The position numbers and the translations under genes were made by a program. From Eledone cirrhosa (lineage: Eukaryota): 64,000 nucleotides of DNA. Location of the stretch: contig OZ024748.1 of assembly GCA_964016885.1 (NCBI GenBank), positions 17,112,001 to 17,176,000 on the forward strand, in the 5' to 3' direction. Below the pieces are notes generated by a model. That model saw only the letters and a program-made list of their open reading frames with translations, was not told where the DNA came from and did no database searches. Below, piece by piece: positions 7,175 through 45,735 of this stretch (its first letter is position 1; every line of letters starts with the position of its first letter).

Positions 7175-8560
7175 TTTGTACATTTCAACAATGTTTTGAT
7201 AATGTAGCACAGCCTTAGTGATGTTTGTACATTTCAACAAAGCTTTGATAGTATGGTGCAGTCATAGTGATGTTTGTACATTTCAACAAAGTTCTGATAG
7301 TGTGGTGCAGTCATAGTGATGTTTGTACATTTCAACAAAGTTCTGATAGTGTGGTGCAGTCATAGTGATGTTTGTACATTTCAACAAAGTTTTGATAGTG
7401 TGGTGCAGTCATAGTGATGTTTGTACATTTCAACAAAGTTTTGATAGTGTGGTGCAGTCATAGTGCTGTTTGTACATTTCAACAAAGCTTTGATAGTGTG
7501 GTGTAGTCATAGTGCTGTTTGTACATTTCAACAAAGCTTTGATAGTGTGGTGCAGTCATAGTGCTGTTTGTATATTTCAACAAAGTTTTGATAGTGTGGT
7601 GCAGTCATAGTGCTGTTTGTACATTTCAACAAAGTTTTGATAGTGTGGTGCAGTCATAGTGCTGTTTGTACATTTCAACAAAGCTTTGATAGTGTGGTGC
7701 AGTCATAGTGATGTTTGTACATTTCAACAAAGTTTTGATAGTGTGGTGTAGTCATAGTGATGTTTGTACATTTCAACAAAGTTTTGATAGTGTGGTGTAG
7801 TCATAGTGATGTTTGTACATTTCAACAAAGTTTTGATAGTGTGGTGTAGTCATAGTGCTGTTTGTACATTTCAACAAAGTTTTGATAGTGTGGTGTAGTC
7901 ATAGTGATGTTTGTACATTTCAACAAAGTTTTGATAGTGTGGTGTAGTCATAGTGCTGTTTGTACATTTCAACAAAGTTCTGATAGTGTGGTGCAGTCAT
8001 AGTGATGTTTGTATATTTCAACAAAGTTTTGATAGTGTGGTGTAGTCATAGTGCTGTTTGTACATTTCAACAAAGTTTTGATAGTGTGGTGTAGTCATAG
8101 TGCTGTTTGTACATTTCAACAAAGTTCTGATAGTGTGGTGCAGTCATAGTGATGTTTGTATATTTCAACAAAGTTTTGATAGTGTGGTGCAGTCATAGTG
8201 CTGTTTGTACATTTCAACAAAGTTTTGATAGTGTGGTGCAGTCATAGTGCTGTTTGTACATTTCAACAAAGTTTTGATAGTGTGGTGCAGTCATAGTGAT
8301 GTTTGTACATTTCAACAAAGTTCTGCTAGTGTGGTGCAGTCATAGTGATGTTTGTACATTTCAACAAAGTTCTGCTAGTGTGGTGCAGTCATAATGCTGT
8401 TTGTACATTTCAACAAAGCTTTGATAATGGGGTGCTGTCATAATGCTGTTTTGCACATTTCGACAATGCTTTACTAAAGTGGTTCAGTGCTAGTGCTGTT
8501 TTGTACATTTCAACAATATTTTGATAGTGTGGTGCAGTCTAAGTGCTGTTTTATACATTT
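7175..8560. repeat. 49-bp minisatellite, about 28 copies (tgtacatttcaacaaagttttgatagtgtggtgcagtcatagtgatgtt)
   Basis: Period 49 (gtcatagtga at 7261 and 7310); degenerate edge units. Confidence 0.95.
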
Positions 8561-9124
8561 CCTCAACTATATGGTAATGTGGTTTCATGTGGTATATTAA
8601 ATGTTAATTGTATCCCTGCCCCACGTATCAAAAACCAATCTTGTCCCTGACAGAGAAATCATTATTAGTTGTATTTCAGTACTCTTATTTATACTGTGTA
8701 GTGTCACCGCATTACTAAATGCAGCTGTGTTTCTGCCCTTGTTACAAATATTTAGTGTGTAAAACATGGACTGTTCCATTTAGGAGAAACCATTCTCATG
8801 ATTTCTTATGAATGAAACAGTTCTAGTCCTCTAGAAATGATTTCTATAATAAAATAAATATGCCTATACTCTATTAATGTATTGAGTACCTTTTTTAAAC
8901 TGTAGTCACCTCTCAGTATATATCAGGAGTCCACGTGTATATATATATATGTTCATTTATGTTTAGTTGTTCACCACTAAATAAAACTGATCATTCCATT
9001 TAGTTAACCATGATGTAATAGTAGGAAAAGTACTCTACGTTACGTAACTCATCCAATGTTGACGTTGAATCCTGTGGTTGGTGATAGAATAGGGTTGAAT
9101 ATCAAACCAATATATATATATATA

Positions 9125-17039: not shown

Positions 17040-17212
17040 GTTGGTAGAGCATCAGACACCATGATTTGTAGCATAGAGTTATGGCCCTTTGCATTCTATG
17101 TTCAAATCCCGCAAAGGTTAACTTTGCCTTTCATCCTTACAGGGTCAATAAAATAAAGTAGCAGTAATGCACTGGGGTAATTGCTGGCCTTGTGCCAAAG
17201 TAGAAAGAATTA
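17040..17212 (+). mobile_element. SINE family A
   Basis: B-box, core and tail. Confidence 0.8.
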
Positions 17213-17256: not shown

Positions 17257-17369
17257 TACAGGTTGTCCCCCAAAAATGTATATACATACACTTTAACAGC
17301 ATTCTAATAAATATTGCTTGTACAGGTAATTAAAGTATGTATGTATTTTTTGGGGGGGAACATCCTGTA
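17257..17369. mobile_element. Tc1/mariner-type mini-MITE
   Basis: TA-CAGGTTGTCCCCCAAAAA ... TTTTTTGGGGGGGAACATCCTG-TA; partial second copy at 17726-17815. Confidence 0.65.
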
Positions 17370-17644
17370 TATATATATATAAATATATATAAATGAGAGG
17401 TATAGAGATTGTTTTAGCAAGAAGCTAACGGCATTCTATAACATATATGCGACTATAACGTCAAGATGGGAAAAGTAGTTAACGAAAGATTTAGGAAAAA
17501 TAACTCAAACTCATCTCAAAAGAGAATCGGGATATAAATTCATCCACAGAATTTAGTAAAATACAGGGAAAAATCTATAGACCTTTAACTCATGATAAAA
17601 TAAAGTTTGAAACACTTATCCTTCAATTTGGAATAACATCAAAT

Positions 17645-17725
17645 GCTCTGTATAGTCTTAAAAGACTATTTCATGAAAACTTTCAGTGGAGATGGTCACG
17701 GTTGGATTTCATTCATCAGCAGAGC
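17645..17725 (-). ncRNA. Type I hammerhead ribozyme (canonical core)
   Basis: Minus strand: GCUCUG-CUGAUGA-AUGAAA(28 nt)UUUCAU-GAAA-UAGUCU UUUA AGACU-AUA|CAGAGC. Stems I, II and III all pair; predicted cleavage is between 17651 and 17650. Confidence 0.8.
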
Positions 17726-17819
17726 TACAGGGTTTTCCCCAAAAATATATACACATATACTTCAACAGCATTCTAATAAATATATATACAAGTAATCAAA
17801 GTGTATATATATTTGTTGA

Positions 17820-18130
17820 TGCCTGTGTGCGAAGTGCGATGCTTCTTGGTAGTGAAACATGAGCAGTGACTGCAGAGGACATGCGTAGGTTGGAGAGAAA
17901 TGAAGCAGTCATGCTTCGTTGGATGTGCAATGTAAATGTGAGAGAACGGCTGAGCCTGGTTGAACCGAGGGAGCATCTGGATTTATGAGGAATGAGAAGT
18001 GATGAGCAAAAGGGAAGACTGCATTGGTATGGGCATTTGATGTGCATGGATGACTATCATTGGCTGAACTGCTAGGAAAAAAGTGCATGGAAAAACAGAC
18101 ATAAAACGATGATGACGACAATGATGATGA
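17820..18130 (+). mobile_element. RTE LINE fragment
   Basis: Translates as AMLLGSET*AVTAEDMRRLERNEAVMLRWMCNV ... LHWYGHLMCMDD, with an RTE-type (GAT)n tail. Confidence 0.75.
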
Positions 18131-38052: not shown

Positions 38053-39343
38053 CTTTACCATTTACATTACTCTATATTTACTATTATATTTTCATGGTAA
38101 AGGCTTTACCTCACATACCATTTACATTACTCTATATTTACTATTATATTTTCATGGTAAAGGCTTTACCTCACATACCATTTACATTACTCTATATTTA
38201 CTATTATATTTTCATGGTAAAGGCTTTACCTCACATAACATTTACATTACTCTATATTTACTATTATATTTTCATGGTAAAGGCTTTACCTCACATAACA
38301 TTTACATTACTCTATATTTACTATTATATTTTCATGGTAAAGGCTTTACCTCACATACCATTTACATTACTCTATATTTACTATTATATTTTCATGGTAA
38401 AGGCTTTACCTCACATACCATTTACATTACTCTATATTTACTATTATATTTTCATGGTAAAGGCTTTACCTCACATACCATTTACATTACTCTATATTTA
38501 CTATTATATTTTCATGGTAAAGGCTTTACCTCACATACCATTTACATTACTCTATATTTACTATTATATTTTCATGGTAAAGGCTTTACCTCACATACCA
38601 TTTACATTACTCTATATTTACTATTATATTTTCATGGTAAAGGCTTTACCTCACATACCATTTACATTACTCTATATTTACTATTATATTTTCATGGTAA
38701 AGGCTTTACCTCACATACCATTTACATTACTCTATATTTACTATTATATTTTCATGGTAAAGGCTTTACCTCACATACCATTTACATTACTCTATATTTA
38801 CTATTATATTTTCATGTTAAAGACTTTACCTCACATAACATTTACATTACTCTATATTTACTATTATATTTTCATGGTGAAGGCCTTTCCTCACATAATA
38901 TCTCACATAACATTTACATTACTCGATATTTACTATTATATTTTTATGGTAAAGGCCTTTCCTCACATAATATCTCACATAACATTCACATTACTCTATA
39001 TTTACTATTATATTTTCATGGTAAAGGCCTTTCCTCACATAATATCTCACATACCATTTACATTACTCTATATTTACTATTATATTTTCATGGTAAAGGC
39101 CTTTCCTCACATAATATCTCACATACCATTTACATTACTCTATATTTACTATTATATTTTCATGGTAAAGGCCTTTCCTCACATAATTATCTCACATAAT
39201 ATTGAAGTTATAAGATTTTGATATTATTTATTTTGAGAACAATACCTTAACATCAGTATGAGCAGTTGGTTATGGCCAGTTTGAACAGAAAAAGGTGAGA
39301 GAATTCTGGCCGGTTATGGCCTGTTTAAATGCTAAAATGTTTA
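38053..39343 (+). repeat. 60-bp (later about 72-bp) minisatellite expanded inside a MITE P1
   Basis: Exact 60-bp period over 38053-38880; the unit equals the P1 5' body; the P1 3' half and TIR follow at 39180-39343. Confidence 0.95.
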
Positions 39344-40520: not shown

Positions 40521-40970
40521 CAAATCCCACCGAGGTTAACTTTGCCTTTCATCCTTACGGGGTCTATAAAATAAAGTACCAGTAATGTACTGGGTAATTG
40601 CTGGCCTTGTGCCAAAAGTAGAAACAATTATATATATATGGAGGCACATGGCTTAATGGTTAGAGCATTGGTCTTGCAATCGAAAGGTTGTGAGTTCAAT
40701 TCTCAGACCGGGTGATGTGTTGTTTCCTTGAGCAAGACACTTTATTTCACATTGCTCCAGTTTACTCAGCTGTAGAAATGAGATGATAGGGACTGGGGTC
40801 CCTATCATTCCACTGTAAAGTGGTCGTGGAGGTGCCACGGCAAAAAAGCACCCAGCACTCACTGTAAATGAGGTTGGTGTTAGGAAGGGCATCCAGCTGT
40901 AGAAATCAAGCCAGAATCAGTTCCCATCCCACCCTTGCAAGCAGGGAAAAGTGGACGTAAAATGAAATGA
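40521..40970 (+). mobile_element. Partial SINE A followed by a full composite SINE B+C (40639-40970)
   Basis: Matches other copies in the window. Confidence 0.8.
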
Positions 40971-44550: not shown

Positions 44551-44699
44551 TGTATCTGTTTTCCAGATTGGCATAGATTGGACAGGTTGTCATCTGAGAT
44601 TAGACTCTTCAGAATATCACATCTTACATATATGTTAGCTCCATTTTGGCATAGTTTCTGTGGCTAGAATGTCCTTCACATTACCAAGTTACTAACTGC

Positions 44700-45735
44700 T
44701 TTACAGAGTGTACTGGGTATATTTTATTGTGGTACCAACACTACCACTTTACAGAGTGTACTGGGTATATTTTACTGTGGTACCAACACTACCACTTTAC
44801 AGAGTGTACTGGGTATATTTTATTGTGGTACCAACACTACCACTTTACAGAGTATACTGGGTATATTTTATTGTGGTACCAACACTACCACTTTACAGAG
44901 TGTACTGGGTATATTTTACTGTGGTACCAACACTACCACTTTACAGAGTGCACTGGGTATATTTTACTGTGGTACCAACACTACCACTTTACAGAGTGTA
45001 CTGGGTATATTTTATTGTGGTACCAACACTACCACTTTACAGAGTGTACTGGGTATATTTTATTGTGGTACCAACACTACCACTTTACAGAGTATACTGG
45101 GTATATTTTATTGTGGTACCAACACTACCACTTTACAGAGTGTACTGGGTATATTTTACTGTGGTACCAACACTACCACTTTACAGAGTGTACTGGGTAT
45201 ATTTTATTGTGGTACCAACACTACCACTTTACAGAGTATACTGGGTATATTTTATTGTGGTACCAACACTACCACTTTACAGAGTGTACTGGGTATATTT
45301 TATTGTGGTACCAACACTACCACTTTACAGAGTGTACTGGGTATATTTTACTGTGGTACCAACACTACCACTTTACAGAGTGTACTGGGTATATTTTATT
45401 GTGGTACCAACACTACCACTTTACAGAGTGTACTGGGTATATTTTATTGTGGTACCAACACTACCACTTTACAGAGTGTACTGGGTATATTTTATTGTGG
45501 TACCAACACTACCACTTTACAGAGTGTACTGGGTATAATTTATTGTGGTACCAACACTACCACTTTACAGAGTGTACTGGGTATATTTTATTGTGGTACC
45601 AACACTACCACTTTACAGAGTGTACTGGGTATATTTTATTGTGGTACAGGCACTACTGCATATTGTGGTACAGGCACTACTGCATATTGTGGTACAGGCA
45701 CTACTGCATATTGTGGTACAGGCACTACTGCATTT
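44700..45735. repeat. 48-bp minisatellite (about 20 copies) followed by a 24-bp sub-repeat
   Basis: Unit ttacagagtgtactgggtatattttattgtggtaccaacactaccact; period 48. Confidence 0.95.

Follow-up and report, generated by a model that had tools for sequence, protein, structure and literature searches.

A type I hammerhead motif in the Eledone cirrhosa genome marks an abundant 630-bp repeat family with features of a non-LTR retrozyme

What kind of element carries a single hammerhead motif in a long stretch of DNA, and how did that element come to be there? We analysed 64,000 nt of the Eledone cirrhosa genome (assembly GCA_964016885.1, contig OZ024748.1, positions 17,112,001 to 17,176,000), here called the window. 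An earlier note on this DNA had described a fully canonical type I hammerhead on the minus strand, at the head of a short element with a non-repetitive tail. The features of the locus are given in Table 1.

The motif itself is present as that note described it. It is a minus-strand type I hammerhead with stems of 6, 6 and 7 bp, a whole core and an AUA triplet; stem III is counted with A15.1-U16.1 and closed by a 4-nt loop. The bases follow the core rule of C3 U4 G5 A6 N7 G8 A9, G12 A13 A14, A15.1-U16.1 and H17. A descriptor scan found one match in the window and none in 200 locally shuffled windows. When a 91-nt piece was folded, the hammerhead was both the minimum-energy and the centroid form (-19.7 kcal/mol, z -2.69; a single one of 200 shuffles did as well). 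In this fold, loops cap helices II and III, and helix I is open. A longer piece of 146 nt, with more flank, kept the hammerhead fold with a z of only -0.85. The fold, together with the invariant core across subfamilies and the compensatory pairs described below, backs the prediction that the motif has a true stem III and folds as a monomer.

Table 1. Positions of the hammerhead motif, the repeat copy and adjoining elements in the window.
Feature	Position	Strand	Basis
Type I hammerhead motif	17725-17645	(-)	Sequence, fold, alignment, descriptor scan
Stem I, 6 bp	17725-17720 with 17650-17645	(-)	
Core C3-A9	17719-17713	(-)	
Stem II, 6 bp, loop 28 nt	17712-17707 with 17678-17673	(-)	
G12-A15.1	17672-17669	(-)	
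Predicted cleavage site after AUA triplet (A17 = 17651)	17651/17650	(-)	Sequence, standard hammerhead numbering
Small hairpin (stem 5 bp, loop 9 nt) immediately 3' of stem I	17626-17644	(-)	Circular fold, alignment
5'-truncated unit copy, unit positions 291-630, subfamily A	17387-17726	(-)	Alignment to unit copy L013
Fixed 3' end into (TA)n tract (target site; overlaps last unit bases)	17368-17390	(-)	Sequence, insertion anatomy
Predicted hairpin just 5' of fixed 3' end	17401-17440	(-)	Predicted fold; alignable in subfamilies A, B and C
MITE-like hairpin element, TA-bounded, 110-bp, outside the retrozyme	17259-17367	.	Inverted repeats, fold z -5.57
MITE-like element, second copy (partial), at the 5' junction	17726-17818	.	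81-88% to the first

"Fully canonical" was nevertheless too strong a description. The covariance-model check that the note proposed gave no Rfam hammerhead family at the gathering score and none among the 21 matches at E<=10; the miRNA-like Rfam matches near the motif correspond to the flanking hairpin element. The miss is probably due to the long stem III and loop II, and the ribozyme appears to be an architectural variant that Rfam does not capture. In type I hammerheads the pair 10.1-11.1 is a purine-pyrimidine pair, usually G-C. Here it is A-U, and among 15 aligned copies it is A-U in 4, G-C in 1 and unpaired in 10 (mostly U.U). An unpaired 10.1-11.1 may lower ribozyme activity. Loop II is strongly conserved, and inspection by eye gave no established partner for a contact between this loop and stem I. 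The small hairpin 3' of stem I keeps its stem arms in the three subfamilies introduced below (A, B and C), while its loop varies.

We searched the 3.0-Gb genome for this sequence and obtained 1,633 candidates, the best 40 at 99-100% identity, many matches lying in tandem at a spacing of 628-631 bp. The repeat unit is 630 bp long, has 33% GC and carries one type I hammerhead. Its six-frame translation gives short frames only, with no long reading frame. Exact patterns place at least 1,904 core-intact motifs (core, stem III arms and triplet) and at least 4,158 3' ends running into TA across the genome; the reversed-pattern control was 0 in both cases. The 630-bp period is common to three subfamilies, of which B is ~77% and C ~82% identical to A. 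No LTR architecture was found at the insertion junctions. With copies that are 99% identical, the family appears to be young as well as abundant, and very probably a retrozyme-type non-autonomous retroelement. Our search for a published description of the family, in which subscription papers were scarcely covered and repeat libraries lay outside, found none; a repeat catalogue may already contain it.

The tail that the earlier note took to be non-repetitive is thus part of a high-copy repeat, and the apparent start of the element at stem I does not hold either. The window copy (L001) is cut short at unit position 291, and full units continue for a further 290 bp upstream. It comprises 340 of 630 bp (0.54 unit) and, over 344 bp, is 99.4% identical to unit copy L013. 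That it begins at stem I is due to chance truncation. With a single ribozyme and 290 bp of the unit missing, the window copy is likely an inert dead-end product, unable to yield a circle, which could at most cut a read-through transcript. Upstream of the ribozyme in fuller units (L013 ~1376-1385 and the matching places in B and C), a palindrome that we take to be CRE-like is kept in five of six aligned units. This candidate internal promoter element is absent from the window copy.

Two further groupings were considered and rejected. A separate 50-bp tail-only element proved to be short truncations of subfamily C, for which there are 654 longer matches. An active ribozyme-less subfamily was suggested by 66 matches; most lie ~30-50 kb apart in one C28 region or on small contigs, and we read them as one decayed copy carried along by a larger duplication. 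That region (L215-L229, G000:C28 124.7-126.5 Mb) is a tandem duplication with a period of ~30-50 kb; at least 46 copies share one orientation, and a single decayed ribozyme variant marks the duplication.

Has the ribozyme been kept for its function? Five units from A, B and C are identical at all 12 fixed core bases, compared with 391 of 611 other positions (Fisher p=0.005). Non-core differences reach 27-28% between A and B and ~20% between A and C, yet 0 of 12 fixed core positions differ in four comparisons; N7, the sole free core position, varies between U, G and C. Core conservation in homologous copies, on which the earlier note had staked its claim, was found in 91 of 95 A copies and 31 of 38 B copies. 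In an alignment of 15 copies chosen by hand (2 A, 5 B, 8 C), 92.7% of cells are paired compared with 25-52% in slid controls, although this covariation reflects few subfamily splits, not independent events, and relatedness alone can beat the shuffles. Four pairs changed on both sides, namely the core-proximal stem I pair (G-C to A-U) and three stem II pairs; stem III has no double change. These alignments argue that the hammerhead motif is real and under constraint. Since the core is conserved across subfamilies 20-28% apart, cutting would seem to matter to the copies that spread.

The insertions themselves record how the copies were made. Merging of overlapping loci left 102 regions, of which 72, the window copy among them, belong to subfamily A; these are top-scoring matches, biased to young copies. 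Nearly all A insertions (71 of 72) end at unit 629-630, which lies 264 nt downstream of the predicted cut site, with TA at the 3' side in 70 and at the 5' side in 52. Subfamily B has the fixed 3' end in 20 of 29 complete copies. The 5' ends of the A insertions are scattered and none of the 72 falls at unit 360-374, which is at odds with a short ribozyme-headed element followed by a unique tail. Four of the 72 lie at unit 378, and there may be a mild excess of 5' ends just downstream of the cut site. From 100 of 190 genome-wide pattern matches, 20 distinct TA-to-unit junctions near the cut were read by eye; 3 lie upstream, 14 downstream and 3 are ambiguous through TATA microhomology (p=0.09), with no clear pile-up of 5' ends at the cut site among these 20. 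One A insertion of 72 (L212) has an inverted 5' piece, as in Penelope-like elements (PLEs).

The least biased sample consists of 33 A insertions retrieved by a query restricted to the 3' part. Of these, 27 extend across the cut site and 16 are more than one unit long; 4, of 1.5-1.9 units, cross the cut site twice. From a cut linear monomer no more than 264 nt could be copied, and most of the insertions span the cut site; the template was therefore a circle or an uncut multimer. The cut monomer, which would pile 5' ends at the cut site, was also rejected on the absence of such ends from unit 360-374.

Units within one insertion resemble each other. In 20 of 22 cases their six subfamily markers match; of the other two cases, one is a region that holds two separate insertions (L232) and one is an alignment edge (L239). 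Unit differences amount to 0.62% within insertions (34 insertions, without L232, L239 and the inverted L212) and to 0.89% between them, so the short multimers already arose as multimers. The long arrays have a different history. In four of them (L240, L269, L270 and L272) the interior follows an ABAB or ABB pattern whereas the end units are unlike, and these arrays grew partly by later local duplication of units. The length of arrays of 5-13 units is therefore no evidence for rolling. Dimer circles with one dead ribozyme were considered as a source of the ABAB arrays, two of which had been chosen for their alternation, and were rejected: the patterns are internal, the end units do not follow them, and some arrays have two core-intact or two broken units. 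One old array (L269 1430-9500) has at least 13 units ~7% apart and holds an internal, near-identical ABABAB block in which intact and broken ribozymes alternate.

Could such duplication account for the whole family? It would then be a dispersed minisatellite spreading at the DNA level, with the hammerhead as an inherited relic. Local duplication is visible in the long arrays, and local amplification has been proposed for tandem retrozymes (10.64898/2026.07.22.740005). However, thousands of TA tracts hold copies with one fixed 3' end and random 5' ends, which is the pattern of retro-insertion. Unequal crossover from less than one unit cannot make insertions of 1.04-1.9 units, which do occur. 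In addition, the differences within insertions are close to those between them, and the ribozyme core is constrained. We consider a minisatellite origin highly improbable.

Whether a circle or an uncut multimer served as template is the main doubt. In the second case, linear multi-unit transcripts from source arrays would be copied uncut by the same PLE-type insertion, with no circle and a slow or late ribozyme that would serve to trim or turn over the RNA. Such transcripts account equally well for insertions that span the cut site. The first stem II pair is weak, and for a PLE of Anolis unprocessed RNA is described as the dominant substrate, with ribozyme mutants still inserted in vitro (PMC11167929). 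Full conservation of the core across the diverged subfamilies speaks against an uncut template, and the 7-bp stem III would favour monomeric cutting. The markers shared by units of one insertion look as if they came from one circle, although homogeneous source arrays would give the same result. Taken together, the uncut multimer is possible but rather unlikely.

What enzyme might have copied the units? Among 10,596 GIY-YIG candidates in the genome, we scored 150 and inspected 44 loci. Pfam recognised both a reverse transcriptase (RT) and a GIY-YIG domain in five of nine long frames scanned, and these include intact ORFs. The L064 frame resembles RT/HTH_animal/GIY-YIG clusters and carries a cysteine linker, a trait of Neptune and Nematis PLEs (PMC8557442). 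The L064 and L071 PLE families have minimal hammerheads and end in (TA)n. In two subfamily B copies (L155 and L171) the neighbour is an L064-family PLE, adjoining with no TA tract. It was that PLE which led to L155, however, and a common preference for TA targets can account for both adjacencies. These adjacencies and the inversion in L212 are weak hints of a partner.

Several other observations concern the PLEs of this genome. Autonomous families with minimal hammerheads and (TA)n ends include L064, L065, L068 and L074 (3' of the ORF) as well as L071, and several of their copies have inverted 5' pieces. The first stem II pair of the L064 family is also U.U. Uninterrupted PLE-type frames were found at L061 2809-5622 (-), L062 2488-5019 (+) and L063 1775-5062 (+), encoding 938, 844 and 1096 aa. 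In the L061/L062 family the 3' region is long and repetitive, and its first 900 bases contain no hammerhead core.

The units could also be PLE sequence outright. The copies would then represent the pLTR and tail of an unsampled autonomous PLE, and the short copies its ordinary 5'-truncated insertions. PLE pLTRs do bear type I hammerheads, form partial tandems and prefer (TA)n (PMC8557442), and the loci scored and inspected here are a sample of the GIY-YIG candidates. Within that sample, the unit does not resemble the repeats at the 44 loci; the one strong match is a separate subfamily-C stub. In 127 regions, copies that extend beyond the 3' end continue into another 630-bp unit and never into an ORF, and no RT/GIY-YIG ORF continues from the unit. 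The lack of a long reading frame and the 630-bp period kept by three subfamilies also argue against this origin, which we regard as improbable.

The reading we favour, with a probability of roughly 0.6, is a non-LTR retrozyme whose multi-unit transcripts would be cut, likely form 630-nt circles and likely be copied by a PLE into TA microsatellites. Its base is the set of traits described above: tandem units with one hammerhead each, no ORF, a fixed 3' end, scattered 5' ends and TA targets. As the conservation of the ribozyme suggests, multi-unit transcripts would be cut into monomers. A host ligase, as in other animals, would close each monomer into a 630-nt circle; the unit folded as a circle reaches -128.4 kcal/mol (z -4.1 compared with 40 shuffles) with the hammerhead formed. 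A PLE endonuclease would nick the (TA)n tract, and the PLE reverse transcriptase would start internally beside the hairpin, 264 nt downstream of the cut site. An internal RT start is known in a PLE (PMC11167929), and the hairpin just 5' of the fixed 3' end is a candidate signal for it. Reverse transcription would then cross the joined cut site and stop at random, resulting in 5' truncation. Afterwards, units were duplicated locally in some long arrays.

The unit has a TA-rich stretch at the RT start point, where a few bases of pairing between unit and target are possible; in the Anolis PLE the start site is described as not homologous to the target (PMC11167929). We hold a more specific version only tentatively, at less than even odds. 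Here a Neptune-type PLE would start at one hairpin on the ribozyme-made 630-nt circle and roll over the ligated cut into (TA)n, and the retrozyme would have been active recently.

The family has the testable features of non-LTR retrozymes and, judged by its sequence, appears to be a new member of that class. The animal retrozymes of mussel, coral and axolotl (Cervera and de la Pena 2020, PMC7229834) also have one type I hammerhead per unit and are tandem and non-coding. They are likewise low in GC (criterion <45%), number thousands of copies and are predicted to form a self-paired circle in which the ribozyme is free to fold. A U.U at the base of helix II is described for one of them, the weaker axolotl ribozyme HHR_Amex2. 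Their units measure about 170-400 nt (criterion 150-450 bp) compared with 630 bp here, which is long for an invertebrate, and helix III has ~1-2 bp there and 7 bp here, with a loop II of 28 nt in our family. A helix III of 1-2 bp is given as usual for metazoans (PMC4209133). The strict (TA)n targets and single fixed 3' end of our family have no evident counterpart in the main text of PMC7229834, where the word "microsatellite" is absent. Those retrozymes are expressed as RNA, both linear and circular, whereas ours is described here from genomic DNA.

Vertebrate non-LTR retrozymes, described as non-autonomous PLE derivatives (Li, Clavereau, Pollet 2026, 10.64898/2026.07.22.740005), likewise occur together with PLEs. 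Their unit range of 51-972 bp includes 630 bp, and they too form monomers, dimers and multimers and amplify arrays locally. The short insertions of our family differ in pointing to multi-unit templates at insertion, not only to later local amplification. In Xenopus, 24 of 57 families match known elements, nearly all of them PLE termini, whereas the 630-bp unit has no pLTR similarity among 44 loci. The same report describes 8 of 9 Xenopus retrozymes as lacking cleavage in vitro.

Neptune-type PLEs (PMC8557442; PMC4209133; Anolis PAc, PMC11167929) share a type I hammerhead upstream of the tail and (TA)n targets with our family, and their insertions have a fixed internal 3' end, 5' truncation, partial tandems and an occasional inverted 5' piece. 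All of these marks are present here, the inversion in 1 of 72. Unlike such PLEs, the unit has no RT or GIY-YIG ORF. Its full stem III also contrasts with the minimal hammerheads that metazoan PLEs carry, among them the L064 and L071 families found here.

For the mobilisation of animal retrozymes, circular templates and PLE partners have both been proposed in print (PMC7229834, 10.64898/2026.07.22.740005). This family is young and abundant, with one exact copying start, one target type and intact PLE frames in the same genome, which makes the choice between circle and multimer, and the question of the partner, directly testable. If the circle-templated reading is true, the family would provide genomic evidence for circle-templated retrotransposition in an animal, along with a hammerhead variant of long stem III and long loop II that Rfam misses. 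The value lies in the mechanistic record left by the family's insertions, not in the single window copy.

The surroundings of the window copy are rich in repeats. The copy sits in TA between two MITE-like copies, the first of which is repetitive in DNA contigs. This flanking repeat, spaced by 469 bp, was considered as a target-site duplication and rejected, as its two copies are 81-88% identical. In a search for a host gene, none of 133 scanned frames (of 234 listed) matched Pfam, and the window copy is possibly inside an intron. A very high-depth repeat lies at 17087-17200. On the plus strand at 17830-18070 there is a decayed stretch, repetitive in DNA contigs, that, judged by eye, resembles the C-terminal part of what we take to be an RTE-type LINE frame. 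A weak partial tRNA match (30.5 bits) at 40649-40706 (+) is likely the head of a tRNA-derived SINE. Minisatellite arrays with periods of 49, 60/72 and 48 bp occur at 7175-8561, 38056-39203 and 44699-45647, with 94-98% identity.
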